Of a stretch of 64,000 nt of DNA, positions 39,426-62,814 are shown piece by piece. The notes below the pieces were generated by a model. It saw only the letters and a program-made list of their open reading frames with translations, made no database searches and was not told the DNA's origin. The translations under genes were made by a program, and so were the position numbers. The DNA lies in assembly GCA_965279515.1 (NCBI GenBank), contig CBDIID010000003.1, forward strand, positions 4,160,001 to 4,224,000, in the 5' to 3' direction. Source of the DNA: Turneriella sp. (GTDB taxonomy: Bacteria; Spirochaetota; Leptospiria; Turneriellales; Turneriellaceae). The stretch's first letter is position 1, and every line of letters begins with the position of its first letter.

Positions 39426-40418
39426 TCAGAGGCGCGACCTCGTTTCCGCAAACTCGTGGGCAAAGTAGGTGATGACTGCATCAGCGCCGGCACGGAAAAA
39501 TGCCAGCAGCATTTCATCGCGCGCGCGCTCGGGATCAATCCACTTTTTTTCACCCGCAGCTTTCACCATCGCATACTCGCCGCTGACATTGTAGCAGACG
39601 ACGGGCAGGTCGCTTGCCTCTTTGACGCGGCAGATGATATCGAGGTAGGCGAGCGCCGGCTTTACCATCAGGTAGTCGGCGCCCTCGGCGGCGTCGATGC
39701 GGGCTTCGCGCAGGGCTTCACGCGCGTTTGCCGGATTCATCTGGTAGGTCTTTTTATCGCCGAATTTCGGCGCCGATTGCAGCGCATCGCGGAACGGGCC
39801 ATAATAGGCGCTGGCGTATTTTGCCGTATAAGACATGATCGCGGTTTTTGTATGGCCGGCGGCATCGAGCGCATCGCGTATGTAACCCACGCGGCCGTCC
39901 ATCATATCTGAGGGGCCCAGGATATCGATACCCGCTTCGGCCTGCGCCAGCGACATTTTCGCCAGTACCTCGAGCGTCGCATCGTTTAAAATTTCACCGT
40001 TCTCGACGATGCCGTCGTGGCCGTCGCTGCTGTAGGGGTCGAGCGCAACATCGGAAATCAATACGGCTTCGGGGAAATTTTTCTTAAAGGTGCGGATCAT
40101 CCTCAGGTAAAAATTCTGCGCCGACCAGGAATAAGAGCCCGTTTTATCTTTCAACGCGTCGTCGACCGCAGGAAATAAGATAAAACTCCGGATGCCGAGT
40201 TTGAGCGATGCCGCGATACGCGCCAATGCCTTGTCTTCGCTGAAGCGAAAAACGCCCGGCATCGAAGAAATTTCTTCCGCTTTGTTTATCCCATCGATGA
40301 GAAAAAGCGGTTCGATCAGCTTATCGACGCGAATCTGCGTCTCTTCTGCGAGCGCACGGACGCCATGCAGAGTGCGGTTGCGCCGCGGTCGTTCTCTGAG
40401 GTAATCTGCCTGAGGCAT
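39426..40418 (-). CDS. hemB: Porphobilinogen synthase (Asp-rich, Zn-independent type)
   Basis: DVALDPYSSDGHDG, PSDMMDGRV, SYTAKYASAYYGPFRDA, MVKPA, YNVSGEY. Confidence 0.97.
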   Translation of the reverse strand: MPQADYLRERPRRNRTLHGVRALAEETQIRVDKLIEPLFLIDGINKAEEISSMPGVFRFSEDKALARIAASLKLGIRSFILFPAVDDALKDKTGSYSWSAQNFYLRMIRTFKKNFPEAVLISDVALDPYSSDGHDGIVENGEILNDATLEVLAKMSLAQAEAGIDILGPSDMMDGRVGYIRDALDAAGHTKTAIMSYTAKYASAYYGPFRDALQSAPKFGDKKTYQMNPANAREALREARIDAAEGADYLMVKPALAYLDIICRVKEASDLPVVCYNVSGEYAMVKAAGEKKWIDPERARDEMLLAFFRAGADAVITYFAHEFAETRSRL

Positions 40419-40419
40419 G

Positions 40420-41268
40420 TCAGTTTGAAGGTTTTACTTTTGTGAGTTTGCCGCGCGAATTACTTTCGTTCTCAAAATCCTGGGCCTGCTTGAGGTGTTC
40501 TTCAAAAGGCAGTACGAAAAAATGTTCCGGATCGAGGATGATTCCCTGCTGCGTACGCATCTCAAAGTGCAGGTGAGGCCCGGTCGAGCGGCCGGTATTG
40601 CCCGAGCTGCCGACGATTTGCCCGCGTACGATTTTGTCGCCGACTTTGACGAACGAGTCGGTGAGGTGGGCATACCATGCCACCGTGCCGTCATGGTTCT
40701 CGACAAAAACGCAGTGCCCGTAGGCGCCCTGGTCGCCGATCAGCATCACGGTACCGTCGGTGGCGCCGACAACGATGCTGCCGCGCGAGGCCGCAACGTC
40801 GATACCACCATGCACCTTGCCCCAGCGGTTGCCGACGCGGCTGGTGATGCGGATGCCCATCACCGGCCAGACATACTGGCCTTTTTTCAGCGTGACCTTT
40901 TGGCGGTAGATGCCTTTTTCTTTCAGGTCTTCAATATATTTTGCGATGAAAGGAATAAAATAGAGGCCGTTTTTCTTGATGTGCTTCTGTGATGGATTCA
41001 GCTCGTTGACGAGGCGAAAAAGCATCGGGTCGCACATCTCTTCTTTGCAGGTCTTTTTGATCGATGCCGTCGAGGTGATGTTCGCCCAGACGCCGGCATA
41101 ACCCTGGTACGTCTGGATGAGGCGGTTGTCGATTTCCACGTCGCCTTCTTTCATGAGCGCTTCGGCGCGCTCGGCCATGACCTGCCAGCTCGATTGCGCG
41201 CCACTACCGGCCGAGGCCGCGTCGGCCGCGAGAAGCAAGAGACATAAGATCAGACCCGGTTTATTCAT
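40420..41268 (-). CDS. Exported M23 family peptidase
   Basis: HGGID, YAHL, GNTGRSTGPHLHFE. Confidence 0.92.
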   Translation of the reverse strand: MNKPGLILCLLLLAADAASAGSGAQSSWQVMAERAEALMKEGDVEIDNRLIQTYQGYAGVWANITSTASIKKTCKEEMCDPMLFRLVNELNPSQKHIKKNGLYFIPFIAKYIEDLKEKGIYRQKVTLKKGQYVWPVMGIRITSRVGNRWGKVHGGIDVAASRGSIVVGATDGTVMLIGDQGAYGHCVFVENHDGTVAWYAHLTDSFVKVGDKIVRGQIVGSSGNTGRSTGPHLHFEMRTQQGIILDPEHFFVLPFEEHLKQAQDFENESNSRGKLTKVKPSN

Positions 41269-42658
41269 TGCCGCCGACGGCAGTCGCTGACGCGCCTAAC
41301 GTAGCTGCAAGTTCTTTATAACTGAGCTTCTTCCCCTTTTTGACAATCCCTTCGTCGTCGAAATAACGGAAGAGAAAGTCACGGCTGAATACTGTGAGGT
41401 ATGAGGAAACCAGCGATTCCCAGGGGCTGCGCTCGGTTTTGCCTTCGACCATAGCGTCAATCACGCGGTCGATTTCGCCCAGCAGGGTTTCTGCCTTTTC
41501 ATTCTGACCTTCGAAGCGCAGTATCTCTTCGTGGATATAGCGCTTGAATGCCTGGATATATGTTTCTGTGTTTTTGTTTTTTTTCTGATGATTCTTCTCT
41601 GCGTCGCTGATCAGCTGGCGCATCAGAAGATTAGCATGCTCGCGTTCGCCCAGGGCTTTTTTCAGGTTTTCAATCTGCGGCGCCGTCAGTTCTGATTTTT
41701 CAATCTTGCGCTCTGTTGCGAATTCGTCGAGTTTCTGGTCGACGAAACTTTCTGACAGAAAAAACTGCGCGCTGCCTTCGAGGGTCTTCAGCGCCTTGTC
41801 GGTTTCGGCCCGCACCTGCGCTACGTCGAAGCGCCGTTCGAGATCGGCGCGCACTTTCGTCTTGAATTCGGCGACATTGGCATTGCCTTTGAAGTTTTCT
41901 GCGACGAATGCATCTGTCAGTTCGGGCAATTTCGGTTTGGAGACCTTTTTGATGGTCGCAATAATTTCATAGCTGCGCGTCTTGCCGTCTTCCTGCGCCT
42001 GCATATCTTTTTTGAGTTTGAACTCTTCGCCGGCTTTGCCCTTTTTGTCGATGATCTGCTGTTCGAGCTCGCGGCTCAGGGTGCCGGAACCCAGGTCGAA
42101 AACAAAATCTTTATTGACTTCGCCCGATGGGGCATCGTCGATCCAGATTTCGAAATCGACGGTGAGTTTATCGCTACGCTCGGCCTGTGCCCCTTCACTG
42201 TCTTCGAAGGTGGCAAAACGCAGCAGGCGTTCTTTGATTTCTGCTTCGACATCGCCGTCGTCGATCGCGGGAATATTGCGCGTCAGCTGTGCAACTTTGA
42301 GTTTACCGATTTTTACAAACGGAAACAGGTCGAGTTTTACGGCGAAAGACATCTTATCGCCTTTCTCCTGGACGTCTTCGATACGTACGAGGCGGAACAC
42401 GCGCTCTTCAATTTTCTTTTCGACGTCGCTGAGATGGTGGTCGACGAGCGCAAACAGTGTTTCGAGGCGGATATCCGAGGCATATTTCTGGCGGATCATA
42501 TGCACGGGAGCTTTGCCCTTGCGGAAACCTTTGATTTCGACCTGCGCGCCGACTTTTTTCAGCGCCTGTTCTTCGGCGGGTTTTAATTCTTCGGAATTTA
42601 CGGTGATGTCTGCCTTGACCCGGGTTTCGGACTCACGGCTGATGGAAATGGATGGCAT
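41261..42658 (-). CDS. tig: Trigger factor
   Basis: Ribosome-binding motif IKGFRKGKAP, FKBP-like middle domain, LPELTDAF. Confidence 0.9.
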   Translation of the reverse strand: MPSISISRESETRVKADITVNSEELKPAEEQALKKVGAQVEIKGFRKGKAPVHMIRQKYASDIRLETLFALVDHHLSDVEKKIEERVFRLVRIEDVQEKGDKMSFAVKLDLFPFVKIGKLKVAQLTRNIPAIDDGDVEAEIKERLLRFATFEDSEGAQAERSDKLTVDFEIWIDDAPSGEVNKDFVFDLGSGTLSRELEQQIIDKKGKAGEEFKLKKDMQAQEDGKTRSYEIIATIKKVSKPKLPELTDAFVAENFKGNANVAEFKTKVRADLERRFDVAQVRAETDKALKTLEGSAQFFLSESFVDQKLDEFATERKIEKSELTAPQIENLKKALGEREHANLLMRQLISDAEKNHQKKNKNTETYIQAFKRYIHEEILRFEGQNEKAETLLGEIDRVIDAMVEGKTERSPWESLVSSYLTVFSRDFLFRYFDDEGIVKKGKKLSYKELAATLGASATAVGGNE

Positions 42659-42758
42659 TCCGGCAAAAACGGGATTTTAGACACCCCGTCAACGAGTGCG
42701 AAGCCTGCGCGAACCGGCTTTTCATTGACATTGGAATGGGAGCTTTACCTGTAACGGG

Positions 42759-43706
42759 ATGTTCCTGCTGAAACATCTGTTGCTCTTTGCCATCCTCGCA
42801 AACACAGGTTTTGCCGCCGAAAAAGTCGTCCGCGTGGTCTATCTTGTCTCCGCCGACCGTGAGACCGATGCGGCTTATGCCGCCGGCGCTGAAAATGCCA
42901 TCCGCAGCATCCGTGAGTGGTATAAAAAGCAGATGGGCGGTTACACTTTCAACCTGCATGATCCGGTGGTCGAGGTGGTGAAATCGGGTAAACCGGCCGC
43001 GTATTTTTATACGAACCCCCGGCCTTCGCACAAGGATAACTGGGGATTCGACAACACGCTCGAAGAGGCGAATCGCCTCCTGGGAGTCAGGCATAACGAT
43101 CCCAATACTGTCTGGGTGATCTATTCCGATGGCCCGGGCAATTCGGGCCGCGGCGGCGGGGGGGTCTGTATTATGCCCGAAGACGATCTTCTGGGCCTCA
43201 CAGGCCGGCATCCGACGCAGAAAGATATCAACCGCTGGATCGCAGGCCTGGGACATGAGCTCGGCCATGCGCTGGGTCTGCCGCATCCGAAAGATATGAA
43301 AAAGCATGCGGATGCCATCATGGCGAGCGGCATCTACGGCAAATATCCCGACCAAACGTATCTCACCGAAGAAGACAAGGCGCTCTTGCGGCAGAGTCCG
43401 TTCTTTTTCGACGCGGCGGGAAATCCCGTTGCGGGAAAAAACCAGACGCTTGCTGTTTTTAGTTATGGAACCGGCCGCTTCACGCGCAGCCAGAATTCCC
43501 TGACGCACAAAATCGCCTGGCAAGAGATCAACCCCGAAGGCGAGAGTTTTCGTTTTGACGAAGAAAAAGCCGACGCGCAGTTCTATTACCTGCGCGCCGT
43601 CGACCGCAAGATCTGGATTAAGATCCCGCTGGCGGGCGGGCCGGGTTCTCTTTCCGTTGACGGCAGGGTTTGGCGCGCCTTCCAGAATATGACCGTGCAG
43701 AAATAG
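42759..43706 (+). CDS. Exported metzincin-type zinc metallopeptidase
   Basis: Signal peptide, HELGHALGLPH (HExxHxxGxxH), Met-turn AIMASG. Confidence 0.85.
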   Translation: MFLLKHLLLFAILANTGFAAEKVVRVVYLVSADRETDAAYAAGAENAIRSIREWYKKQMGGYTFNLHDPVVEVVKSGKPAAYFYTNPRPSHKDNWGFDNTLEEANRLLGVRHNDPNTVWVIYSDGPGNSGRGGGGVCIMPEDDLLGLTGRHPTQKDINRWIAGLGHELGHALGLPHPKDMKKHADAIMASGIYGKYPDQTYLTEEDKALLRQSPFFFDAAGNPVAGKNQTLAVFSYGTGRFTRSQNSLTHKIAWQEINPEGESFRFDEEKADAQFYYLRAVDRKIWIKIPLAGGPGSLSVDGRVWRAFQNMTVQK

Positions 43707-43707
43707 C

Positions 43708-44280
43708 ATGCGGGTTTTGCGGCGCATCCTCACCGCTCCGCTCGTCTTCATTGCCGCGGTTATTATCCTGCTCGAAGACTGGCTGTGGGATGACCTGCAG
43801 CGCCTCGCCGCATGGTTTGGCCGCCTGCCGGTTTTCAGGCAACTTGAGGCGCTGATTGTGCGTCTGCCGCCGGCGGCGGCGTTGGGTTTTTTTATCCTGC
43901 CTTCGCTGGTGCTGATTCCCGTTAAGTTTTTGGCGCTCTATTTCATCTCGCGCGGCCAGGCGCTGCTGGGACTCGCGACTATTGTCGCCGCAAAGATTGC
44001 CGGTACGGCGCTTGTCGCGCGGCTTTTCAAGCTCACCAAGCCGAAATTACTCACTTTTGGCTGGTTTGCCTGGGCGTACGGACATATCACAGAATTCAAA
44101 AGGCGGATCTATAACGTTATTCAATCCTCGGCTATTTATAAGCTGGTGCGTGATCGTGCGCACCGGTTACGCCTTTGGGTCAAGAGATGGAATGCAAGGC
44201 GAAAAAGCTGGTTCAGGCGCCGTTTCCGCGCCGCGAGAAAACTCATGCGACAACGGCGGGAGAAGTCGCGTTTAAAGTGA
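43708..44280 (+). CDS. Hypothetical membrane protein with basic C-terminus
   Basis: ILLEDWLWD and LARLF-like segments, hydrophobic stretches; 1 nt after the peptidase gene. Confidence 0.7.
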   Translation: MRVLRRILTAPLVFIAAVIILLEDWLWDDLQRLAAWFGRLPVFRQLEALIVRLPPAAALGFFILPSLVLIPVKFLALYFISRGQALLGLATIVAAKIAGTALVARLFKLTKPKLLTFGWFAWAYGHITEFKRRIYNVIQSSAIYKLVRDRAHRLRLWVKRWNARRKSWFRRRFRAARKLMRQRREKSRLK

Positions 44281-44354
44281 CACGGCCCTCCATTCCCTTA
44301 CCATAAAAACAAAAGTTCCGCTTTACTGGATATATTTGTCTTTTATTTTGTGGT

Positions 44355-44813
44355 ATGACAGCCTCGAATGGCCTGGAACGGGAAATCAATGCCACGGTGG
44401 AGAAATTTGCGGCGGAACCCGACAATCTTATTCTTATCCTCCATGCAATCCAGAACGCCCACGGCTACGTGCCGCGGGAGTCGGCGCTTTTGCTTTCCGA
44501 ACGCCTGGCAATTCCGCTCGCGCGCATCTATGAAGTGCTGACGTTCTATCATTATTTCCGCACTGCGCCGCCGGGCGAACATACGATCGTGGTTTGCCAT
44601 GGTACGAGCTGCTGGCTTGCCGGTTCAAGCAAAGTGCTCGATGAGGCGCAACAATATGCTCAGGCGCATCCCGAAACGAAAGTTGAACAGGTTCGCTGTG
44701 TCGGCTGTTGTGGCCTGGCACCGCTGGCGTTTGCGGACAAGAAAATTCACACTCACCTCGATGATAAAAAAACCAGCGCGATGCTGAAGCAAATGATCAG
44801 GGCGGATGTATGA
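44355..44813 (+). CDS. hydC: NuoE-like [2Fe-2S] subunit of a trimeric [FeFe]-hydrogenase
   Basis: LHAIQNAHGYVP, VLTFYHYF, CHGTSC and CVGCC ligands. Confidence 0.9.
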   Translation: MTASNGLEREINATVEKFAAEPDNLILILHAIQNAHGYVPRESALLLSERLAIPLARIYEVLTFYHYFRTAPPGEHTIVVCHGTSCWLAGSSKVLDEAQQYAQAHPETKVEQVRCVGCCGLAPLAFADKKIHTHLDDKKTSAMLKQMIRADV

Positions 44814-46642
44814 CGATACCCGCCGGCGAAATCCGCGTCGCCATGGATTCGGGTGGTATCGCCGCCGGCGCCGCTGCCGTGTTCGCTGAGCTTACAGAAC
44901 TTGCAAAAGATTACCCACAACTCAAGGTTGTGTCCGTGGGCACCCCCGGTATGTGTTACGCCGATCCGCAGGCGGAGATTGTCCTCGCCGGGCGGCCGCG
45001 CATTAGTTTTGGTAATCTTAAAGCCGATGCGGTTAAACAAATTTTCACAGAGTTTGTCCTCGCGGGAAAATTTCCGGAAAAGAAAAAATCCCCCGGCTGT
45101 GCGTTACTGGCGGGAAGAAATCCCGGTACAGAGCTGCCGGAAAAAATAACGCACCTCATTTTCTGCGACACCACGCAGAGAGAGGCTGAGTCTTTGCTGA
45201 CTGCTTTCACCGCGGTCCCGGGTGCCGCGCTGGAAATTGCCAGGGCGGATGATTTTGGTTTTTATAACCGCGGTCTGGCCGTGCAGGTTTTTCCCGGTGG
45301 CTTGGTCATTGCCGATCTCAAGCGTGACGAACTGGCGCCGGCCGTTGCGGAACTATTGGTGCAGAAAATTCCCCGACGGGGTTCTGTGATTAAAGATCCG
45401 GCGCAACTTAGAATCGCCAGCCGTAATTGCGGCGTCATTGATCCCGAAAGTATCGCTGCGTATGAAGCGGCGGGTGGTTATACAGCATTGCGGCGCGCGC
45501 TCGAACACAAACCCACGGACATCGTTGCTGAAATTTCTGAGAGTGGCCTCAGGGGGCGTGGCGGCGCGGGTTATCCGACGGGCAAAAAATGGCAGCTGAC
45601 GGCCGCAGAAGACGGCGCGCAAAAATATGTCATCTGTAACGGTGACGAGGGCGACCCCGGTGCATTCATGGACCGCAGCCTGCTCGAAAGCGATCCGCAT
45701 AAGGTGCTCGAAGGCCTGATTCTTGCCGGGTTTGCTGTGGGGGCAAGCGTCGGTTATTTTTATATCCGTGCCGAATATCCGCTGGCGACGGCGCGCGTGC
45801 GCAAAGCAATTGAGGCGGCCGAAGCCGAAGGTTATCTCGGCGAGAAAATTCTTGGCAGTATTTTTTCTTTTGAAGTGCGCGTGCGCCTGGGTGCCGGCGC
45901 CTATGTCTGCGGCGAAGAGACTGCGCTCATCGCCTCGGTTGAAGGTAAGCGCGGCAGCCCCCACCCGCGGCCGCCTTATCCCTCTGTGAAAGGGCTCCAT
46001 GATGCACCGACCTGTATCAACAACGTCGAGACGCTGGCGAGTGTGCCCGAAATAATTGTGCGCGGGGGTGCCTGGTATGCGGCGATCGGTGAGGGAAAAT
46101 CCACAGGTACAAAAGTTTTTGCGGTCTCGGGAAAAATCCGCCGTACGCAACTGGTCGAGGTGCCGATGGGCCTGACGGTGCGCCATGTTGTCGACGACCT
46201 CTGCGGCGGCGTTCAACCCGGCAAAAAACTCAAAGCGGTACAAACCGGAGGGCCGTCGGGGGGGCTCGTTCCCGCGAATCTGCTCGAGACACACTTGACC
46301 TACGAAAACATGGCGGCGCTAGGCTCGATCATCGGTTCCGGCGGCATGATTGTGCTGGACGAAGACGTGAATATGGTTGAGCTCATGCGTTTTTACCTCG
46401 GCTTCAACGTCGATGAATCTTGCGGTAAGTGCGCACCCTGTCGTGTCGGCGGATTTCAACTGGCGCGGCTATACGATAAGCTTCTTGCGGGTGAGGGACA
46501 TCAGAGCGATTTGGCACAAATTGAGCGTATCGCTCATGCCATGCAGAGTGCGTCCCTGTGCGGGCTGGGAAAATCCGCGCCATCGCCGCTATTTGCAACC
46601 TTGAAATACTTTCGCGGGGAGTATCAAGCATGCCTGAAATAA
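44810..46642 (+). CDS. hydB: NuoF-like FMN/NAD-binding subunit of an [FeFe]-hydrogenase
   Basis: SGLRGRGGAGYPTGKKW, NGDEGDPGAFMDR, GAGAYVCGEET, GGPSGG, ESCGKCAPC...SLCGLG. Confidence 0.92.
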   Translation: MTIPAGEIRVAMDSGGIAAGAAAVFAELTELAKDYPQLKVVSVGTPGMCYADPQAEIVLAGRPRISFGNLKADAVKQIFTEFVLAGKFPEKKKSPGCALLAGRNPGTELPEKITHLIFCDTTQREAESLLTAFTAVPGAALEIARADDFGFYNRGLAVQVFPGGLVIADLKRDELAPAVAELLVQKIPRRGSVIKDPAQLRIASRNCGVIDPESIAAYEAAGGYTALRRALEHKPTDIVAEISESGLRGRGGAGYPTGKKWQLTAAEDGAQKYVICNGDEGDPGAFMDRSLLESDPHKVLEGLILAGFAVGASVGYFYIRAEYPLATARVRKAIEAAEAEGYLGEKILGSIFSFEVRVRLGAGAYVCGEETALIASVEGKRGSPHPRPPYPSVKGLHDAPTCINNVETLASVPEIIVRGGAWYAAIGEGKSTGTKVFAVSGKIRRTQLVEVPMGLTVRHVVDDLCGGVQPGKKLKAVQTGGPSGGLVPANLLETHLTYENMAALGSIIGSGGMIVLDEDVNMVELMRFYLGFNVDESCGKCAPCRVGGFQLARLYDKLLAGEGHQSDLAQIERIAHAMQSASLCGLGKSAPSPLFATLKYFRGEYQACLK

Positions 46643-48381
46643 AAGCAGAAGTCAACGGCATTGCCGTTACCGTCAAAGCCGGCGGCACGCTGCTCGATGC
46701 GGCCCGGGCCGCGCAGGTGAATATCCCGACCTTGTGCAAACATCCCGATCTTGTCGCCAACGGTGCGTGCGGCCTGTGCCTTGTGCGCGTCGAAGGCATG
46801 AACGGTCTGCCGCGCGCGTGTACCACGCCGGCTGAAGAGGGCATGCGGATTACGACGCATGACGGTGAAATTACCGAAATCCGCAAAACCGTCCTCGAAC
46901 TGATTCTTTCTACACACCCCAATGCCTGCCTGAGCTGCGGCCGCAACCAGAGCTGCGAGTTGCAGACGCTCGCCGCCGATTTCGGCATCCGCGAAGACGT
47001 GTGGGAACATTATCTGCCTGGCTTACCGAAGGACACTTCGACGGGATCTCTGGTCATCGACTTTGACAAGTGTATTCGCTGCGGCCGCTGCGTGCATGTC
47101 TGCCAGGATCTGCAGAATGTGCACGCGCTGTCGTTTCTGGGTCGCGGCATGCAGACGCGCATGGCGCCGGCCGGCGACATCCTGCTTGCCGAGTCGCCCT
47201 GCGTGATGTGCGGGCAATGCTCGGCGCATTGCCCGACGGGAGCCATTGTCGAGGCTGACGAGACGACGCTTGCCTGGGATTTTTTGCGCGGTAAGGAAAA
47301 TTTTACGGTCGCGCAGATTGCGCCATCAGTGCGCGTCGCGATCGGTGAAGAGTTTGGCTACGAACCCGGTACAAACCTCACGGGGCAGCTCTATGCGGCG
47401 CTGCGCCGGTTGGGTTTTGATGCCGTCTTCGATACCAATTTCTCCGCCGATGTCACGATCATGGAAGAAGCCAATGAATTTGTCGAGCGCTTCAAACACG
47501 GCAAGCGAGACATGCCGCTTATTACCTCATGTTGCCCTTCGTGGACTGATTACATGGAAAAGCTGCACAGCGATTTTATCCCGAATTTTTCAACGACCAA
47601 ATCGCCGCAGCAGATCATGGGGGTGCTGGCCAAGACCTACTATGCGCAGAAGATGAATATCGACCCTGCGCGCATGAAAATGGTATCGATCATGCCGTGC
47701 ACGGCAAAGAAATACGAAATCACCCGCGATCACGAGATGTTTGCGTCAGGCCACAAGGATGTCGATGTAGTGCTCACCACGCGCGAGCTGGCGCGCATGA
47801 TCCGCCAGGCGGGCATTGATTTCCGCAAGCTTGCCCCGGAAGAGGCGGATAATTTTCTGGGCGCGTACTCGGGTGCCGGCACCATGTTTGGTACAACGGG
47901 TGGCGTCATGGAAGCTGCGCTGCGCACCGCGCAGTTTGTCCTTTCCGGAGAAAAAATGCCGAAGCTGGTTTTTGAAGAACTGCGTGGCCTTGAGGGAATT
48001 AAAGAAACAAAAGTTGTTATTGGCGGTGAAGAAATCCGCATTGCCGTGGCACACGGGTTAGGCCATGTCGGCGAAGTATTGGACCGGGTGCGTAAGGCAA
48101 AGGCAGAAGGTAAGCCCATGCCCTACCATTTTATCGAAGTCATGGCGTGTCCCGGCGGCTGTATTGGCGGGGGCGGCCAGCCCTATGGCGTCACGGACGA
48201 AATCCGCAAAAAACGCATGCAGGGGCTCTTTAGCGAGGACCGCGACAAGGCGGTGCGTTGTTCACACGATAATCCCGAGGTGCAACAGGTCTACGCTGAG
48301 TTTCTTGAAAAGCCGCTGTCGGAAAAAGCGCACAAGCTTCTGCACACGACCTACCACGCGCGGCCCGTATATCAAAAGTGA
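46630..48381 (+). CDS. hydA: [FeFe]-hydrogenase catalytic subunit (group A)
   Basis: H-cluster motifs TSCCPSW, MPCTAKKYE and EVMACPGGCIGGGGQP. Also an N-terminal [2Fe-2S], HxxxCxxCx5C, and two [4Fe-4S] motifs. Start at MPEIKA. Confidence 0.96.
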   Translation: MPEIKAEVNGIAVTVKAGGTLLDAARAAQVNIPTLCKHPDLVANGACGLCLVRVEGMNGLPRACTTPAEEGMRITTHDGEITEIRKTVLELILSTHPNACLSCGRNQSCELQTLAADFGIREDVWEHYLPGLPKDTSTGSLVIDFDKCIRCGRCVHVCQDLQNVHALSFLGRGMQTRMAPAGDILLAESPCVMCGQCSAHCPTGAIVEADETTLAWDFLRGKENFTVAQIAPSVRVAIGEEFGYEPGTNLTGQLYAALRRLGFDAVFDTNFSADVTIMEEANEFVERFKHGKRDMPLITSCCPSWTDYMEKLHSDFIPNFSTTKSPQQIMGVLAKTYYAQKMNIDPARMKMVSIMPCTAKKYEITRDHEMFASGHKDVDVVLTTRELARMIRQAGIDFRKLAPEEADNFLGAYSGAGTMFGTTGGVMEAALRTAQFVLSGEKMPKLVFEELRGLEGIKETKVVIGGEEIRIAVAHGLGHVGEVLDRVRKAKAEGKPMPYHFIEVMACPGGCIGGGGQPYGVTDEIRKKRMQGLFSEDRDKAVRCSHDNPEVQQVYAEFLEKPLSEKAHKLLHTTYHARPVYQK

Positions 48382-49196
48382 AGCTAACGATTGCCGCACC
48401 GCGCTCACTTGCGGCAGCGCCGCTTCTGTTATTGTCACAGGAAAAACCTGGACTCTGTTCGGTTTCCTTCTTTACTGATCACGATGAGGCGCTTGCCGAA
48501 CTTGCAGCCGGAGAAATAGATATTCTCTGCAGCGGTTATAGCGAGTGCGATCGCGTTACGACTGCGCTTAAACCCCGGCGTGCGCTGACATTTGTGTGGG
48601 GATTGTCGGCGCTTATGGTGCGCGACGCGGGGACTAAAAATTTAGACGACCTGTCGCAGGCACTTACTGCTGTCGCGGGCGCAGCGCTACTTTTGCCCTT
48701 TGCCGGCAGCCCGCTCGATCTTCAGGTCAGGGCATTGCTCGGCCGCCTGTTTCGTGGACAAAATCTTCCACTGACAAACGCCCCGCTGCCGCAAACCATG
48801 CAGGGTTTTATGCACGAACAGGTCTTCGCAGCAGTTATGCCCGAGCCCATGGCGACGCTGCTTGAAAGCAGTGGCAAAGCGCACAGGCTGTGCGATGTTG
48901 CAGACCTGCATGAGCGGGTGACAGGCGGGCGCTGCTCGCCGCAAGTCTCATTATTTCTCCGCGAAGACAAGCGACTCTCAGAAGAGTTTCTTTCTGCCTT
49001 TGAGCAGGCGATCCAGCTTATGCCCGCATTGAATCCGGGCCAGTGCGCGCAAATTGCCGGTAAGCTGGATATTCCTTTGGCTGTATTTGCGCATGCGCTA
49101 CCGCATGTGCTCTTTGGCTTACCGGCCGAAAAAGAGGTGCACCGGCGCGAAACTATTTACGCCGAATTACTTTTAACCGGCCATACCTCTACATGA
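48378..49196 (+). CDS. Periplasmic-binding-protein-fold (NMT1/SsuA-like) protein lacking a signal peptide
   Basis: LAAGEIDI, LLLPFAGSPLDL, AAVMPEPMAT; GTGA overlap with hydA. Confidence 0.6.
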   Translation: MKLTIAAPRSLAAAPLLLLSQEKPGLCSVSFFTDHDEALAELAAGEIDILCSGYSECDRVTTALKPRRALTFVWGLSALMVRDAGTKNLDDLSQALTAVAGAALLLPFAGSPLDLQVRALLGRLFRGQNLPLTNAPLPQTMQGFMHEQVFAAVMPEPMATLLESSGKAHRLCDVADLHERVTGGRCSPQVSLFLREDKRLSEEFLSAFEQAIQLMPALNPGQCAQIAGKLDIPLAVFAHALPHVLFGLPAEKEVHRRETIYAELLLTGHTST

Positions 49197-49497
49197 GCTC
49201 ATAAAGCCAGTGTTCGAGCCGGAATTTCACTTTGCTGAAATCCGGGGTTTCACGAAAAACCAGCCTGACTTCGGGATTACTTTGGTGCGCGCCGGGTACG
49301 AGCGCGACCTCGCTCGTATGGTCCTCTTCCATGAGAATGCGTAAATGCTTGTCCCAACCCGTTCTTTCCATCCAATCTTCAATCGCTTCGGAAAGAGCTG
49401 TCGCAGCGGACGGGTCGTTGCCGCGGATGCGGATGACGCCCACAAGGTTTGTAAGGTTTAAGTCGGTCTGAGCCGTTTGCAGGGTGGTTGCTTCCAT
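49189..49497 (-). CDS. Hypothetical protein
   Basis: 102-aa ATG ORF filling the gap, with globular-looking composition. Confidence 0.6.
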   Translation of the reverse strand: MEATTLQTAQTDLNLTNLVGVIRIRGNDPSAATALSEAIEDWMERTGWDKHLRILMEEDHTSEVALVPGAHQSNPEVRLVFRETPDFSKVKFRLEHWLYELM

Positions 49498-49602
49498 AAT
49501 AACATAGATGACGCAAAGCTGTGAATTTTGTTTTATTTTTTTTACACAAATTTCCGGAATCGGGCTTTACGGCCTAAAAAGCCCCGGGGTGCCGTAACGC
49601 CC

Positions 49603-50121
49603 ATGCTGATGACTGCCGAAGAAGAAGCGCGAGCGCCTGTAAAGCATGACGATCGTCTGTTTGCGGATGGCCTGCCCGCGCTGGTTTCTGCCGTCGTACA
49701 GCGTACCTGGGCCGAACCCTTTATGCTCGCGCGCCGTATTTTCGGCGACCGGGTAGAGGCTGCCCTTGAGGGTGGCGCGCGCTTTGCCGGCAAGTTAGCA
49801 GGACGACTGTCGAAGCCCGCATTCGCCGCGCTGAAAAATCCCGGCGAGCACGTGCTCGAAGACACGCTCAAGGCGACGCGCCTTGCTGAAAACTTTACCG
49901 GCATCTATGGTCAGGACTATTATCTCAATGAAAAAAAGATCGTGCGCCGTATTCATACCTGCCCGTTCCGCGAAAGGGCGGGGGCCAGGGTGCTCTGCCA
50001 TATCGGCGAAGCTGCCGGGCAGGAACTCTTTGCAGAGCTTGTACCCGGAATCCGCCATAAAGTCCATGTGACGATGGCGCGCGGCCACCAGTTTTGCGAA
50101 TATAGCTACGAGACGGACTAA
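49603..50121 (+). CDS. V4R/MetOD/ATC-hydrolase-like small ligand-binding protein
   Basis: IHTCPF...LCHIGE...TMARGHQFCEYSY cysteine pattern. Start at MLMTAEE. Confidence 0.7.
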   Translation: MLMTAEEEARAPVKHDDRLFADGLPALVSAVVQRTWAEPFMLARRIFGDRVEAALEGGARFAGKLAGRLSKPAFAALKNPGEHVLEDTLKATRLAENFTGIYGQDYYLNEKKIVRRIHTCPFRERAGARVLCHIGEAAGQELFAELVPGIRHKVHVTMARGHQFCEYSYETD

Positions 50122-50122
50122 A

Positions 50123-52810
50123 TTGTTTCCCAAGTTTTTTAAAATCCTGATTTCCGGCATCCGCGCCAAGCTCGCGCTCTTTACAGGTAGCCTCATTACC
50201 CTGACGATCCTGATTCTCAGCTGGACCACGGTCAACCAGCAGACGCAGATTCTTACCGAGAGTTACGAGAAGCAGGCGGCGATTTCGAAAAAATATATTT
50301 CACTTTTGGTTGTCGAACTCAATAACATCGCGCGTAACCTGATCCAGATTGAGGAGTTCCGCCGCCAGATCAGCGAGCAACAGGCGGCGCTGCAGGTTTA
50401 CCGGACGACAAAAACCGTTGAAGAAGAAAAGAAGATCAACCTCGGGCTATTTAAGACCAACCTTTTCGGTGCAATGGGCAAGAAAAAGGTCAGTTTCATT
50501 GTCGATACCTATTATTCGCGGTATCTGAATATCAATGATCTCCAGCAATTGGAGATGCGCGTGCGCCAGCAGATCGGCAACGACATTGGCAAACCCCTGT
50601 CGCAATTCGACTGGCTGACGCTGCAAGGCCTCGCGCGCAAGCTTGTCGGGGTCGAAGACAACAAGATTCTTATCAAAGAGAAAACCAAGCTCGATGCCAA
50701 GATCGCGGCCTTGCTTATTCCCTCGCGGAAAAAAATTATCGAAGATACGGGACTCGAACAAAAACTCTTCCGCATCCAGACATTTCCGGCAACCGATCTT
50801 GCGGCTGCGGAAAAACTCGAGTCTTCATTCGACACCAATCTTCTCAGTAAAGAAAGCCCGCTGTCGGTTATGACAGACAACCAGGTTCTCGAACAGAGTC
50901 TGAGGAAAATTTTTCCGATTATGACGCAGGCGCCGCAGAGCGATATGACACCGCATGCCACAGCCGTGCAGGATCATGGTCTCGAGGTTCAGGCACTCTA
51001 TTCGCCGCTGTTTCAACGCCCCAATTCGACCGAATGGGCGCATGCAGTGATCGAACAGAAAGCCGAACTCGCCGCGCACAAGGCTTTTCATGCCAAAGAC
51101 ACGGAAATTGCCGGCCAGATCGCCACGCTTTATCCTAAAATCAAGGCGCGGCTAAAAATTCTGCGCGAACGCAAACCGCCGACCCCGCCTTATTACGATA
51201 AAGATTTCGTCGCGCATTATAAGACCTACACTAAACTCATCGCTGAGCGCGAAAAGGCGCTCGACTTTCTGCCGGGAAAAAACCCAAAACATAACCCGCC
51301 GGACATGGCGCACGAGGCGCTCCGTTCGCTGCGCGAGGCGGCTTGGGAAGATTCGATCATGCTGCGTTACCGCAGTGACGAAACCGAAATCGATAAATAC
51401 ATGACCGATAGCAAGGAACGGGAACTGGTGCGGCAGAGATGGCAGCTCTTGCGCAAATGGGTGAGCGACGCCAATTCCGAGACTGCGCCGCTGGGCCTCA
51501 AACTGCTGTACAACGATGGACAAATCGCCAAATCGCGCAGCGAAGCCGAAGAGGTCCTGTGGGAGCTCGATTCCAAACCGCTCTTTAAGGGCGATGTGCC
51601 ATCTTTCGCTGTGTTGATCCTGCAGGATAATCTCACGGGGATCATGCGCACGCTCGTCGATCGTACCGACGGCGTTAAGCTCGTTAAAGCCAACCGGAAC
51701 AAGGTTCTCATCTCGGCGATTCTCATCGGCCTCGTTTCGATTTTGTTTGCGGTTTATATTTCCGGGATCGTCGTGCAGAAAATCAAGAGGATTATCAACA
51801 GTGCCGAGGCCGTGGGTAACGGCGATCTTTCCGTCGTCTTTGAACACGGCGGCGCAGACGAGTTTGGTCATCTGACGGTTGCACTGAACCAGATGGTGGG
51901 CGGGCTCAACGAGCGCGAAAAGATCAAGGGTATCCTGGGTTCGATGATCGACCCCGTGGTTGTCACCGAAGCGATGAAGGATTTGCAGGCATTAAAAAGA
52001 GGGAGTGAGAAAAATATCACCGCGTTCTTTTCCGATATCGCGTCTTTCTCCGCGATCTCCGAAAAACTTTCCTCGCCCGAGCTCGCTTCACTGCTCAACG
52101 AGTACTTATCTGCCATGACGCTCATTCTGAAAGAATATGAGGGCGTACTCGACAAGTATATCGGCGATGCCATTGTCGGCATTTTTAATTCGCCCGTCGA
52201 TGTCGAAGACCATGCCTATAAAGCGGCGATGGCTTCGATCAAAATGCAGGCCAAACTTGTCGACCTGAAGAAGAACTGGGTTGAAGAAAAAAAATATATC
52301 GCCGAAGCGCAGACGATGAAGTTCCGCATTGGCCTGAATACCGGCCTTGCCAAAGTGGGTTTCATGGGCACGGATGCGCTGGCCTCATACACGATGATGG
52401 GCGATACCGTCAATCTCGCGGCCCGTCTCGAAGCGGCCGGCAAAGATTATGGTGTTTCCATTTTAGCCAGCGATTCCGTATACGATCAGATCAAAGACCG
52501 CATCTTCACGCGTCGCCTCGACGTTGTACGCGTGAAAGGCAAGCACATGCCGGTCACGCTCTACCAGATCATCTGTCCCAAAGGCAAAGAGAATAACCGC
52601 CATGCCGAGTTTGTCGGCCGCTATGAGCAGGGCCTTGCCGCCTATATGCAGAAATCCTGGGATAGCGCGATCGGCTTCTTTAAGGAAGCCCAGCAGGCTC
52701 TCAATGGTGCCGATAAATCTTCACGCCTTCTCATCGAACGTTGCCTGACATACAAAGCCGACCCACCGCCCGCCGACTGGGACGGTGTTTTTACCCGCAC
52801 GACCAAGTAG
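50123..52810 (+). CDS. Membrane class III adenylate cyclase with a large extracytoplasmic domain, HAMP and C-terminal TPR-like helices
   Basis: Two TM helices, DEFGHLTVALNQM, FSDIASFS, DKYIGDAIV, YTMMGDTVNLAARLE, WDGVF tail. Confidence 0.93.
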   Translation: MFPKFFKILISGIRAKLALFTGSLITLTILILSWTTVNQQTQILTESYEKQAAISKKYISLLVVELNNIARNLIQIEEFRRQISEQQAALQVYRTTKTVEEEKKINLGLFKTNLFGAMGKKKVSFIVDTYYSRYLNINDLQQLEMRVRQQIGNDIGKPLSQFDWLTLQGLARKLVGVEDNKILIKEKTKLDAKIAALLIPSRKKIIEDTGLEQKLFRIQTFPATDLAAAEKLESSFDTNLLSKESPLSVMTDNQVLEQSLRKIFPIMTQAPQSDMTPHATAVQDHGLEVQALYSPLFQRPNSTEWAHAVIEQKAELAAHKAFHAKDTEIAGQIATLYPKIKARLKILRERKPPTPPYYDKDFVAHYKTYTKLIAEREKALDFLPGKNPKHNPPDMAHEALRSLREAAWEDSIMLRYRSDETEIDKYMTDSKERELVRQRWQLLRKWVSDANSETAPLGLKLLYNDGQIAKSRSEAEEVLWELDSKPLFKGDVPSFAVLILQDNLTGIMRTLVDRTDGVKLVKANRNKVLISAILIGLVSILFAVYISGIVVQKIKRIINSAEAVGNGDLSVVFEHGGADEFGHLTVALNQMVGGLNEREKIKGILGSMIDPVVVTEAMKDLQALKRGSEKNITAFFSDIASFSAISEKLSSPELASLLNEYLSAMTLILKEYEGVLDKYIGDAIVGIFNSPVDVEDHAYKAAMASIKMQAKLVDLKKNWVEEKKYIAEAQTMKFRIGLNTGLAKVGFMGTDALASYTMMGDTVNLAARLEAAGKDYGVSILASDSVYDQIKDRIFTRRLDVVRVKGKHMPVTLYQIICPKGKENNRHAEFVGRYEQGLAAYMQKSWDSAIGFFKEAQQALNGADKSSRLLIERCLTYKADPPPADWDGVFTRTTK

Positions 52811-52874
52811 CTTTGCGCGGCCAAAACGCTTAATTTTTGACTGACACCCTATCGGGCCTGCGTCCGCATCTCCC

Positions 52875-53801
52875 ATGCGCAAGAAAATATTCTGGCTGAT
52901 AGCGATTCTGCTCCTGGGTATGTGGGGCCACCATGTCTGGTTGAGAATCGGCAAACCGTCGATGACCGACGAAGTGCGGGCGAAAAACGGCAAAAAGTTC
53001 GTGGCCTTGACATCGGGCACCGTTGCCTATGAATATTTCGAGGGTGAGGGCACTCCTGTCGTGCTGGTGAACGGTTTCTCCATGCCTTCGGTCGTCTGGG
53101 ATAATACCTTCAGTGCCCTAAAGCGCTCCGGAACGACCGTGCTGCGCTTTGATCTTTTCGGCCGGGGCTTTTCAGACCGCCCTGATAAAAAGTATAACGC
53201 CGACCTGTTTGTAGGCCAGGTCAAAGAGCTGACAGAGAAAATTCTTCCCGGGCAGAAATTTGTCATTTGTGGCCTTTCGATGGGTGGGGCAATTTCCGTC
53301 TATTTTACGGACAAATATCCTGAGAAAATTGAAAAGCTCATCCTGATCGCACCAGCCGGATTTCCCATGGAGACACCGGCGGTCGCGAGCCTCGTCAAGG
53401 TTCCGCTTTTAGGGGATTACCTCGGTCGTCTCTTTGCGCGGCGTTCGATGGAAAAAGGTATGGCTGATAATTTTACAACGCCCGTGCCGCCACAGATGGC
53501 GGCGCAGAGCCTTGCGCAGACAGAGTATGCCGGTTATGCCGATGCCATTGTGTCGACGCTGCGAAACATGAACATGACGAAAATGGCAGATGTTTACGCG
53601 CGCGTCGGCGCAAAAAAAATCCCTACGCTCTTAATTTGGGGCAAAAAGGATAAAGTCGTACCGTTTGCAAACGCCGCTTCAGTCAAAAAGGCAATCCCAC
53701 ATAGCGAATTTCTCGAACTCGAAAATGCCGGTCACATACCGACGGTCGACGAAGACAAAAAAACGCATGCGGCGATACGCGAATTCTTAAGCGGCGAATA
53801 A
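52875..53801 (+). CDS. Membrane-anchored alpha/beta hydrolase
   Basis: DLFGRGFS, GLSMGG nucleophile, WGKKDKVVP, AGH. Confidence 0.92.
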   Translation: MRKKIFWLIAILLLGMWGHHVWLRIGKPSMTDEVRAKNGKKFVALTSGTVAYEYFEGEGTPVVLVNGFSMPSVVWDNTFSALKRSGTTVLRFDLFGRGFSDRPDKKYNADLFVGQVKELTEKILPGQKFVICGLSMGGAISVYFTDKYPEKIEKLILIAPAGFPMETPAVASLVKVPLLGDYLGRLFARRSMEKGMADNFTTPVPPQMAAQSLAQTEYAGYADAIVSTLRNMNMTKMADVYARVGAKKIPTLLIWGKKDKVVPFANAASVKKAIPHSEFLELENAGHIPTVDEDKKTHAAIREFLSGE

Positions 53802-54368
53802 GCTGCCCTGTACGGGTTTTCCGGGAAGGCTGAGAAAAGGAAATTCTTTTACGGTGCGCCACTTGCCGCGGTGCTCCATGAGGTGCGCCGAGGCGGCCTT
53901 AAATGTCGCAGAGAATTCACGCTGCGAAAATTCATTCCATGCGGCTTCAAAAGTCTGTGGATCGAGATCGCGGTAGGCGACCGTCACGTGCGGCGTGATT
54001 TGACGCGAACCGACGGCGGTATGCGGAAAAGTACGTTCGTTCTTGAGCTTCCAGAATAATAATTCGCGCAGTTTCTGAAACGGCCAGAAGTCTTTGATGG
54101 CCGCAAAAATCGTGTGCGCGGGAAACGCGCCAAAGTCGCTGAGCTCGACATCGAAGGGTGAGGTTGTGGCAAACACTTCGTCGAGCTGTTTCATGAGCCG
54201 CGGTAAATGTTTCTCTTCGTAAAGAAACGTGTCTTGCATGGTGATGTGTCCCATCGGTTTCAGGGCCGCGACGGACTGAAATTTCTGCGCGACCTCTGTC
54301 TTGAGCTGCAGGATCAGTTCTTCCAGGGAGTCTGGAAGCAAAATAGCGATAAAATACAGCTTCTTCAT
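53787..54368 (-). CDS. 2H phosphoesterase (2'-5' RNA ligase family)
   Basis: Two HxT motifs, GHITM and PHVTV. Confidence 0.88.
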   Translation of the reverse strand: MKKLYFIAILLPDSLEELILQLKTEVAQKFQSVAALKPMGHITMQDTFLYEEKHLPRLMKQLDEVFATTSPFDVELSDFGAFPAHTIFAAIKDFWPFQKLRELLFWKLKNERTFPHTAVGSRQITPHVTVAYRDLDPQTFEAAWNEFSQREFSATFKAASAHLMEHRGKWRTVKEFPFLSLPGKPVQGSLFAA

Positions 54369-56986: not shown

Positions 56987-58504
<1,518 letters not shown>

Positions 58505-58680
58505 AAAGGAAATCAGTTGATCCTGAAGTTTTTCCGCAAGGAAAAGCATTAGGACCTCAAGGTCACATTATCCGTCTACTAAAGAACAGATCAGGGCCTC
58601 GGTTAATTACCAAGGGCTTTGAAAAGAAGAGCTTGTAGCACCTAGTGCGGATAGCTTTCGTTGGGAGGAAATAGGCCGTA

Positions 58681-58813
58681 GCGCTTGTAGCACTTCCGCG
58701 AAATGCTGCGCATTTCGCTCCAGAGAGCGAAGACGCTCGCATCGGTTAGAGCACTCGCCTGATAAGCGAGGGGTCGCTAGCGACGAGAACTGCGACTAAG
58801 AGTTTCAGGCATA
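58681..58813 (+). other. tRNA-Ile-derived element with structured insertions
   Basis: GCGCTTGTAGC at 58681-58691 and a 37/38 match at 58743-58780 to the adjacent tRNA-Ile; the T-loop is replaced. Confidence 0.8.
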
Positions 58814-58816
58814 TAA

Positions 58817-58889
58817 GCGCTTGTAGCTCAGCGGTTAGAGCACTCGCTTGATAAGCGAGGGGTCGCTAGTTCAATTCTAGCCAGGCGCA
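58817..58889 (+). tRNA. tRNA-Ile (GAT)
   Basis: Full cloverleaf: GCGCTTG/CAGGCGC acceptor, CTCGC-TTGATAA-GCGAG anticodon arm, GCTAG-TTCAATT-CTAGC T arm. CCA not encoded. Confidence 0.96.
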
Positions 58890-58923
58890 CACCTCGATGG
58901 GTGGATGTACCTGTCGAACTTAC

Positions 58924-58996
58924 GGGGCTTTAGCTCAGCTGGGAGAGCGCCTGATTTGCATTCAGGAGGTCAGCGGTTCAATCCCGCTAAGCTCCA
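58924..58996 (+). tRNA. tRNA-Ala (TGC)
   Basis: GGGGCTT/AAGCTCC acceptor with G3:U70, CCTGA-TTTGCAT-TCAGG anticodon arm. Confidence 0.97.
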
Positions 58997-59356
58997 AAAG
59001 GCTTTCCGAAGGAAAGTCGGGGAATTTCAGATAAAGATCTGAAATCCATTTGAAATAGGATTAAGGAGATAAGCAAGGCCAAACGGTCGTTGCGGTTGGT
59101 TCACCACCAGCATCTTCACAGAGGGAAACCTCTGGTAGAGTCATAGAGATGGCTCCACCAAGTTTGACAACGAATATGGGTAGAGGATTAATAAGATGCA
59201 CGCGAGTGTATTGAGTTGATCCAACACAATTTTGAAGAAGATTTAAAGAAAAGCGCATCGAATATGCAAGTCAGCATATTCTTTATGAGAAGAAGTCAAA
59301 GTGTCAAAGACGATATAAAGGAAACTCAATCAGGTAGATTGAGTGGAGCATAATAT

Positions 59357-62473
<3,117 letters not shown>

Positions 62474-62679
62474 TGCTCCAGAAACTTTCCGCAGGAAAGT
62501 TAGTGGGCTACCCAATAAGGCTGTTTGAGGCGAAAGCCTCAACGCTAACCCGAAGCAGGCGTAAGCCGCTTTAGCAGGCACTTGCAACGCAAGTGCCGAG
62601 GCTGAGGGTTAGCGAAGCCTTATGGGCAGCCCCAAAAGAAATTAAAACCATATTCGAAATCAAATATTCACAATCCAAA

Positions 62680-62795
<116 letters not shown>

Positions 62796-62814
62796 TTTGG
62801 ATTGTGAAGCACGA

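Follow-up and report, generated by a model that had tools for sequence, protein, structure and literature searches.

An intact trimeric [FeFe]-hydrogenase operon in Turneriella, under strong selection in genomes where no HydE, HydF or HydG is found

The maturases HydE, HydF and HydG are regarded as indispensable for an active [FeFe]-hydrogenase. What, then, is an intact trimeric [FeFe]-hydrogenase operon for in a bacterium in whose genome profile searches find none of the three? The question is raised by a 64-kb stretch of a Turneriella sp. genome (G000:C3:4160001-4224000, hereafter the window; G labels denote genomes and L labels loci), in which the genes hydC, hydB and hydA lie in tandem on the forward strand. 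We put the probability at roughly 0.5 that this operon encodes an active, NADH-linked and ferredoxin-independent [FeFe]-hydrogenase whose H-cluster would be assembled by a route not using HydE, HydF or HydG, a reading drawn from sequence comparison. Below, we examine the operon and its host, the clade to which its catalytic subunit belongs, the remodelling of its NADH-binding subunit and the explanations that compete with this reading.

An intact operon in a Turneriella genome

The three genes are all intact, with open frames, and are translationally coupled and vertically conserved in the family. hydC (44355-44813, +) encodes a NuoE-like, thioredoxin-like [2Fe-2S] subunit of 152 residues (Pfam PF01257, E = 3.1e-34), in which cysteines 81, 86, 115 and 119 match the pattern C-x4-C...C-x3-C and which is 69.5-74.5% identical across six same-genus loci. 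It overlaps by four bases (ATGA) with hydB (44810-46642, +), which encodes a NuoF-like FMN/NADH subunit of 610 residues (PF01512, E = 4.4e-46; PF10589, E = 4.6e-26). hydA (46630-48381, +) encodes an M3-type group A [FeFe]-hydrogenase catalytic subunit of 583 residues (PF02906, the large-subunit C-terminal domain, E = 7.6e-95; PF02256, the small-subunit domain, E = 2.1e-25). The longest hydA frame (46558-48381) opens at a GTG; we placed the start at the ATG at 46630, 13 bases inside hydB, because residue 1 then aligns to residue 1 of Acetobacterium woodii HydA1.

The N-terminus of HydA carries, by Pfam, a 2Fe-2S domain (PF13510), a NuoG-type 4Fe-4S domain (PF10588) and two further 4Fe-4S domains of the Fer4 families, and all 16 of its 16 accessory-cluster cysteines are kept. 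The three H-cluster motifs, which we take to be defined as TSCCPxW (L1), MPCxxKxxE (L2) and ExMxCxxGCxxG (L3), are present as TSCCPSW at residue 299, MPCTAKKYE at 355 and EVMACPGGCIGGGGQP at 503. HydA scores 776.9 bits against the NCBIfam model NF040763 for NADH-dependent [FeFe] hydrogenase of group A6 (cut-off 765), and its best solved relatives, aligned over the full length, are those of Thermoanaerobacter kivui (8a6t_A, E = 4e-166) and A. woodii (7q4v_A, E = 3.3e-163). A first-pass annotation of the window, made from the letters and open reading frames (ORFs) without database searches, had described an overlapping, intact hydC-hydB-hydA with all motifs present; its coordinates and description agree with our analysis of ORFs, Pfam domains, motifs and NF040763.

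The host genome comprises 4.90 Mb in three contigs, of which the window's contig spans 4,840,723 bases, and is 99.99% complete with 1.73% contamination. A linked rRNA operon (16S, tRNA-Ile(GAT), tRNA-Ala(TGC), 23S and 5S; 56987-62796) lies on the same contig, 8.6 kb downstream of hydA, and one of the genome's two identical 16S copies belongs to it (the second is at G000:C3:315494-317011). Since rRNA genes are unlinked in Leptospira proper, the linked operon fits a placement of the host outside that genus. The 16S gene is 98-99% identical over its full length to those of five same-genus genomes (G002, G005, G006, G011 and G012) and at most 86% identical to those of genomes from other families of the order. 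Among public HydA records, the nearest bear the names “Leptospiraceae bacterium” (90%) and “uncultured Turneriella sp.” (89%). NCBI places Turneriella within Leptospiraceae; the genome set used here gives it a separate family (f1), apart from 27 genomes of family f8. The host is thus a bacterium of the genus Turneriella, Leptospiraceae in the NCBI sense, and both the 16S comparison and the nearest records bear out the Leptospiraceae-type host that the first-pass annotation had recognised.

That annotation had also raised the possibility of a chimeric assembly. The gene order hemB, M23 peptidase, tig, hydCBA and, further on, a HAMP-cyclase and a hydrolase is repeated in six same-genus loci, and a 16S gene about 10 kb from hydA is also found in G002, G005 and G011. 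GC content is uniform across the region. Single contigs of sequencing runs X1 and X2 cover 40000-54000 with 0 differences; both runs, which also contain other contigs at about 5-fold higher depth, may be source data. With synteny, a linked 16S gene and spanning contigs free of differences, the assembly is not chimeric at the operon, and the locus is native.

HydA, its clade and the missing maturases

In the host's own genome, the best match to the HydE profile reaches 59.8 bits against a cut-off of 254.6 and is BioB (353 bits to TIGR00433), the HydG profile finds no match at all, and the HydF profile recovers only GTPase domains of other GTPases (best 80.8, cut-off 325.55). The first-pass annotation had noted that no hydE, hydF or hydG lies in the window; this holds for the 64 kb, and the genome-wide search and those of 19 relatives are equally negative. 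Across the family of 20 genomes, one- and two-contig genomes included, none exceeds the cut-off for HydG, HydE (best 73.6) or HydF (best 99.2). As a positive control, the HydG and HydA models both scored over their cut-offs in the same two control genomes. The first-pass annotation had named two findings that together would undo its reading, the lack of maturases and the lack of activity; the former is what we found, in the host genome and in all 20 family genomes, so an active H2 metabolism is not established from the genome.

Of the 19 other family genomes, 12 carry HydA, and within the genus the count is 9 of 13; it was not found in 14 genomes from six other families of the order or in the 27 f8 genomes. 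In a 46-row maximum-likelihood tree, ten Turneriellaceae and two Opitutales/Opitutaceae HydA sequences, the latter 66% identical to that of the window, group together (SH-aLRT 99), next to a sister clade (support 86) from Kiritimatiellota, Verrucomicrobiota and Spirochaetaceae in which 16 of 19 hosts have HydG. In a 132-row FastTree tree, the 22 sequences at least 72% identical to the window's HydA form a single Turneriellaceae clade (99) that is sister (98) to a Verrucomicrobiota-dominated clade of 91 rows and is not nested within it.

Among hosts of neighbouring HydA clades, HydG exceeds the cut-off in 22 of 27 (3/3 and 19/24), and the five misses are scattered metagenome-assembled genomes (MAGs), one of them with a truncated match of 257.7 bits. 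Within the clade, HydG, HydE and HydF are all missing from the Verrucomicrobiota hosts G061, G062 and G067. Altogether, HydG was found in 0 of the 26 clade hosts searched (12 in the family, G089 and 13 Verrucomicrobiota). It is absent, too, from same-lineage hosts that carry other HydA types (G016, G109, G116 and G125). Sampling the family of G062 evenly (61 genomes) gave 12 with a HydA 64-67% identical to that of the window and three with only a type 45-49% identical to it; of these carriers, the 13 newly searched have no HydG over the cut-off (best 203.8 against 312). The absence of HydE, HydF and HydG from the family, and of HydG from the Verrucomicrobiota hosts of this HydA clade, appears to be new.

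Several further loci call for separate mention. A different hydABC is present in a family member (L111, G016:C44, 7021-11452): its HydA is 45% identical to that of the window and reads TSCSPGW, its HydB of 396 residues bears the full non-bifurcating signature (PGTFKDK, GQGAYVCGE, GGAAGM), and a lipoprotein-like substrate-binding-protein gene follows, 23% identical to orf272, the gene directly downstream of the window's hydA; G016 has neither HydG nor HydE. In a Verrucomicrobiae MAG (L018, G067:C1, 8385-11332), the HydB match ends at query residue 482 and abuts a HydA match from residue 141, which may point to a copy that is rearranged or truncated, or to a frameshift introduced by long reads. 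Two apparent fusions were discarded: a HydB-HydA fusion in G128 (1233/1258 residues), whose first 650 residues lack NuoF domains and which is an out-of-frame read-through in a GC-rich genome, and a HydA-orf272 fusion in G004 (L114; an 855-residue frame), an artefact of masked bases read as X.

The window's HydA is the slowest-evolving protein at the locus. It is 86-90% identical in seven same-genus loci, and in the six with flanks the values are 74-78% for Tig, 72-74% for HydB, 70-74% for HydC and 76-81% for HemB (five full-length). Nonsynonymous divergence (dN) across six same-genus loci is 0.060-0.086 for hydA, against 0.157-0.172 for tig and 0.164-0.178 for full-length hemB; the ranges are 0.19-0.23 for hydB, 0.20-0.245 for hydC and 0.43-0.60 for orf272. 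Synonymous divergence is saturated (1.2-4.6, some values undefined), and we therefore compare dN alone and give no dN/dS ratios. Invariant alignment columns number 280 of 583 in the 12 sequences of the maturase-less clade versus 267 of 583 in 16 HydG-bearing sister sequences, and of the ten invariant HydA substitutions specific to the clade, none falls within the H-cluster, pocket or proton-path motifs. All 12 clade sequences retain APSVR, FDTNF, TIMEEA(N/S)EF (TIVEEASEF in L016), (T/S)SCCP(S/A)W, KSPQQ, MPCTAKKYE and EVMACPGGCIGGGGQP. HydA is thus under very strong purifying selection, with its pocket unchanged, and selection of this strength in a maturase-less clade appears not to have been described before. 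As far as sequence can tell, this pattern of conservation is neither that of a relic nor that expected of a useless [2Fe] pocket.

We also looked for enzymes that might stand in for the missing maturases. The genome yields 23 Radical_SAM matches, corresponding to 22 ORFs, of which 20 were scanned with NCBIfam. Fourteen fall in named families: MiaB, MoaA, HemW, BioB, MtaB, HemN, the MqnC/CofH family, the PA0069 family, RimO, RlmN, LipA, QueE, KamA/EpmB and ArsS. Six received no NCBIfam name (L128, L129, L132, L136, L137 and L144), and two of these were compared with the distribution of HydA. Neither could be upheld as a replacement maturase: L132 has a homologue in one of 22 genomes, and that genome is HydA-negative, and L129 has a homologue in none of the 22, which makes both strain-specific.

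HydB remodelling and the competing readings

The core of HydB (residues 199-608) matches residues 115-524 of bifurcating B subunits of known structure (best E = 7.7e-154), and the protein ends two residues past this NuoF-type alignment, where the 2x[4Fe-4S] domain of its relatives starts. None of the 9 Turneriellaceae loci has that C-terminal ferredoxin domain, nor do the Opitutales locus L015 and Brachyspira (L038); a CxxCxxC...C domain of about 75 residues is present in six loci from Kiritimatiellota, Verrucomicrobiota, Spirochaetaceae and Desulfovirgula (L020, L022, L025, L031, L033 and L040). At the N-terminus, two modules that align with thioredoxin-like domains have lost their ligands, with SCG changed to SGG, GCxGMC to GTPGMC, CGGTAC to C-DT (with a four-residue gap) and GCFGFC to DFGFY, and no HydB cysteine before residue 207 is invariant in 10 clade sequences. 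The only Fe-S cluster cysteines that remain are those of the NuoF-type (N3-type) cluster, kept at 538, 541, 544 and 584; the FMN/NADH site is retained as well. An AlphaFold model of HydB (mean pLDDT 63.9, pTM 0.42), with beta-alpha-beta-beta-beta-alpha elements in residues 6-84 and 115-183, gives a weak hint of two thioredoxin-like modules.

The HydB of Brachyspira (L038 and relatives) lacks the C-terminal 2x[4Fe-4S] as well and keeps the N-terminal CGGTAC...GCFGFC, and its hosts have HydG (above 800 bits). The two losses, of the ferredoxin domain and of the maturases, can therefore occur apart from each other.

In the accessible text of Losey 2020 (PMC7311640), bifurcating enzymes are recognised by Ala/Glu-232, Met-234, Phe-367 and GGPSG, and non-bifurcating enzymes by Thr/Ser-232, Lys/Ser/Ala-234, Tyr-367, the lack of GGPSG and a separate beta-subunit clade. 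At the Phe-367 position, 9 of 9 Turneriellaceae loci have Tyr in place of the Phe that L015 retains. According to the available part of one report (PMC9499530), every characterised bifurcating enzyme has the C-terminal HydB clusters, which non-bifurcating enzymes lack and which are believed to be essential; another describes them, in the portion accessible to us, as invariant in true bifurcating enzymes (PMC9304861). Our non-bifurcating call follows from the loss of these clusters and not from the signature residues. We predict that this degenerate HydB belongs to an NADH-only enzyme that does without ferredoxin and derives, by secondary change, from a bifurcating ancestor; such a HydB appears to be new in this lineage.

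Compared with the bifurcating HydABC of T. kivui, A. woodii and Thermotoga maritima (8a6t, 7q4v and 7p5h), the operon has the same subunits and gene order, the same HydA clusters, a similar HydB core and a NuoE-like [2Fe-2S] HydC. It differs in a HydB that lacks the B3/B4 ferredoxin domain, the hinge and the N-terminal cysteine ligands, and in hosts that lack HydEFG and respire O2. With the S. wolfei Hyd1ABC type, it shares the predicted mode (NADH alone, no ferredoxin), a beta subunit without extra Fe-S domains and hosts that live by fatty-acid oxidation, but those hosts are strictly anaerobic syntrophs. Of the signature of that type, only Tyr-367 fits the window's HydB, and the nearest solved B subunits are bifurcating. 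Given the retained PGAFMDR and GGPSG motifs and the vestigial modules, HydB looks like the product of an independent secondary loss, outside the S. wolfei lineage.

The host's physiology is that of an O2-respiring organism. The genome holds three genes for haem-copper oxidase subunit I (COX1) and one for HemN, the oxygen-independent coproporphyrinogen oxidase, at 493 bits; searches for cytochrome bd, for the large subunit of a [NiFe]-hydrogenase and for a NifJ-type pyruvate:ferredoxin oxidoreductase (PFOR; best 37.8 bits) were negative. Turneriella parva is described in its genome paper as an obligate aerobe, positive for oxidase, that grows on long-chain fatty acids and alcohols, and the word “hydrogen” does not occur in the accessible text of that paper (PMC3746428). 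The first-pass annotation had assumed aerobic relatives, and the description of the cultured species of the genus as obligately aerobic bears this out.

In an active enzyme of the kind we propose, electrons would pass from NADH to FMN, on to the [4Fe-4S] cluster of HydB, with the [2Fe-2S] of HydC nearby, and through the accessory clusters of HydA to the H-cluster, and HydABC would not bifurcate. NADH from fatty-acid oxidation could be vented as H2 at low H2 pressure once O2 is exhausted; alternatively, the enzyme could run in reverse as an H2:NAD+ reductase. The [2Fe] subcluster would be supplied by a maturation pathway other than HydEFG. Beta-oxidation gives NADH without reduced ferredoxin, which would fit the loss of the ferredoxin-side clusters. 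More tentatively, and at somewhat below even odds, we extend the proposal beyond the window: HydEFG-independent H-cluster assembly would operate in culturable, O2-respiring bacteria, and the whole Turneriellaceae/Opitutales HydABC clade would be an active NADH-linked hydrogenase.

Several observations weigh against an active hydrogenase of this kind. We know of no pathway that dispenses with HydG and HydE in building the CO/CN-ligated [2Fe] subcluster. The host respires O2, to which [FeFe] enzymes are generally sensitive. We found no substitute maturase, with co-distribution with HydA assessed for L129 and L132 only, and when the regions around hydCBA in the window, L109, L110, L015, L016, L018 and L111 were compared all against all with BLAST, no common gene emerged beyond hydCBA and shadow ORFs; the neighbours at the G128 locus add only a TonB-dependent receptor and a halogenase-like gene. 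HydB retains PGAFMDR and GGPSG, two of the three bifurcating motifs of Losey 2020. Finally, the operon is dispensable: it was not found in 4 of 13 same-genus genomes, and in G001, whose tig is the most similar (92% over the first fragment), orf190 sits beside tig and both hydCBA and orf272 are absent. At this locus (L145, G001:C344, 14309-15769), orf190 lies 169 bases from tig and orf102, orf197, the cyclase and the hydrolase are retained, which looks like a clean loss of the operon or an unoccupied state. Because of this patchy presence in the genus and the gap in G001, we regard the operon as an accessory trait that most lineages of the genus have kept and some have lost.

The alternative that survives best holds that HydABC never receives its [2Fe] subcluster and serves as an NADH-dependent oxidoreductase or redox sensor, working through its Fe-S chain and the H-site [4Fe-4S] with an acceptor other than protons. 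The lack of all three maturases in 20 of 20 family genomes and of HydG in 13 of 13 Verrucomicrobiota clade hosts speaks for it, as do O2-respiring hosts, a HydB remodelled away from the ancestral mechanism and the want of a candidate replacement maturase. Against it stand the residues that only a [2Fe] subcluster would need: the relay Cys of TSCCP, the Met and Lys of MPCxxK, the Met of ExMxC, APS and the Glu/Ser/Arg proton path are invariant in 12 of 12 clade sequences from two phyla, under a constraint equal to that in the HydG-bearing sister clade. Known non-hydrogenase homologues of HydA, such as eukaryotic Nar1/NARF, have lost these residues. We take this explanation seriously and still judge it unlikely.

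Far less probable is a canonical bifurcating or confurcating HydABC that requires both NADH and reduced ferredoxin, as implied by a 2018 classification. HydA and the HydB core are nearest to solved bifurcating enzymes, the two motifs named above are kept, and the T. parva homologue was counted as putatively bifurcating in the available text of Poudel 2018 (PMC6085437). A HydB without the C-terminal 2x[4Fe-4S], the cysteines gone from both N-terminal [2Fe-2S]-type modules and a genome in which no NifJ-type PFOR was found to reduce ferredoxin all speak against it.

Less probable again, we consider it a long shot that the apo-enzyme is activated in trans by a [2Fe] precursor, or by maturation itself, supplied by anaerobes living alongside in mixed communities. 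What suggests it is an intact pocket together with missing maturases, and X1 and X2 possibly derive from a mixed culture, with near-identical fragments turning up in groundwater metagenomes. The idea is speculative, however, the axenic type strain T. parva carries the operon, and we know of no natural precedent for a supply of [2Fe] in trans. Lastly, an assembly chimera or a decaying, horizontally acquired relic without function, to which nearest homologues outside the family from another phylum and the same-genus genomes lacking the operon might point, is contradicted by synteny with housekeeping and rRNA genes, spanning contigs, open frames and the lowest dN for hydA, and is hardly credible.

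The wider locus and what the operon may mean

Directly 5' of hydC lies a promoter-like element, GCTTTACTGGATATAnnnGTCTTnTATT (44320-44347, +), which reads as a -35-like TTTACT plus a -10-like TATT about 8-15 bases before the hydC ATG. By eye, the motif recurs in four of six same-genus loci (L106, L107, L108 and L112), that is, in five of seven with the window; L113 and L115 retain only GCTTTACC of it. Such a conserved motif looks like the operon's own promoter, a putative function read from its sequence.

Downstream, the GTG start of orf272 (48378-49196, +) overlaps the stop of hydA. Its product is cytoplasmic-looking and has a type II substrate-binding-protein fold (AlphaFold pLDDT 93.5), with Foldseek matches to SsuA, TauA, Thi5, MqnA and CmpA at 11-18% identity. 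The gene is directly 3' of hydA in five same-genus loci (L106, L107, L108, L113 and L114) and was not found in the hyd-positive loci L112 and L115; its 25 homologues, where the source names one, bear Turneriella names only (Turneriella sp., T. parva). orf272 may be a member of the operon. As a maturation factor it was rejected: its substrate-binding fold is generic, its homologues carry Turneriella names only, it evolves fast, and it is missing from two hyd-positive loci.

The stretch at 42759-44280 holds orf315 and orf190. The membrane-protein-like orf190, which has no family match, lies upstream of hydC here and downstream of hydA/orf272 in the other genus loci, so that the hydCBA-orf272 block sits on the opposite side of orf190 in this strain. 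orf315 shows a weak resemblance to zinc metalloproteases (Peptidase_M10, E = 8e-4), and none of the other genus loci compared has a counterpart of it. At 49528-52810, orf197, with a Cys/His-rich C-terminus and a weak MetOD1 match (E = 0.23), abuts a HAMP and class III adenylate/guanylate cyclase of 895 residues. The pair follows the hyd block in six of six same-genus loci with flanks and is present in the hyd-less G001 as well; it may be a sensor-cyclase pair, with its linkage to hyd possibly a matter of mere inheritance.

Two observations lie further afield. Groundwater-metagenome runs X5 and X6, from one study, contain short contigs at least 99% identical to parts of 40000-54000 (in X5, 13 such pieces over 26 of 30 bins, at low depth), from which we conclude that a very close relative inhabits groundwater. 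On the host's 38-kb contig C1, a QueE-like radical-SAM match occurs twice (2114-2374 and 25588-25848), about 23.5 kb apart and with identical scores; C1 may be a small replicon or a phage assembled as a concatemer.

The first-pass annotation had called the H2 metabolism of this lineage “unrecognised”, which is too strong. In the accessible text of Poudel et al. 2018 (PMC6085437), the HydABC of T. parva DSM 21527 (AFM13386) is among the few putatively bifurcating Hyd, 1% of the total, that come from putative aerobes. That enzyme comes from the same genus and operon type and is treated there as putatively bifurcating, with no mention, in the same text, of maturases or of HydB degeneration. Our search turned up no publication that reports missing maturases or a degenerate HydB for Turneriella or Opitutaceae, and the word “maturase” does not occur in the review PMC8924675; most subscription journals and supplements lay outside its reach.

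The closest parallel for the missing maturases, and a precedent for activity without them, comes from archaea and protists. Most archaeal genomes with [FeFe]-hydrogenases lack HydEFG, and an alternative pathway has been proposed, with Giardia and Entamoeba cited in its support, in the available part of Greening et al. 2024 (Cell; PMC11216029). Those enzymes share an intact HydA without the full maturase set, but they are mostly minimal or hybrid forms, found in protists or in anaerobes that have not been cultured. The present case concerns a standard M3 HydA within a trimeric enzyme, and its bacterial hosts have closed genomes, respire aerobically and include a cultured type strain.

In protists and mostly uncultured archaea, the absence of the genes could be attributed to incomplete genomes or poor tractability. 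The same paradox now stands in bacteria with closed or near-closed genomes, in two phyla and in all 26 hosts searched from a single, well-supported HydA clade, with selection on the pocket as strong as in maturase-bearing relatives and with an aerobic type strain of the genus in culture collections. Whether there is a second route of H-cluster maturation or a non-hydrogenase job for an intact HydA thereby becomes a directly testable question. If an active hydrogenase is the right reading, T. parva would be a bench organism for the pathway suspected in archaea, Giardia and Entamoeba, and the enzyme a predicted natural example of a bifurcating HydABC reduced to an NADH-only type. It would also hint that “obligately aerobic”, fatty-acid-oxidising spirochaetes may possess a hidden low-oxygen redox outlet.

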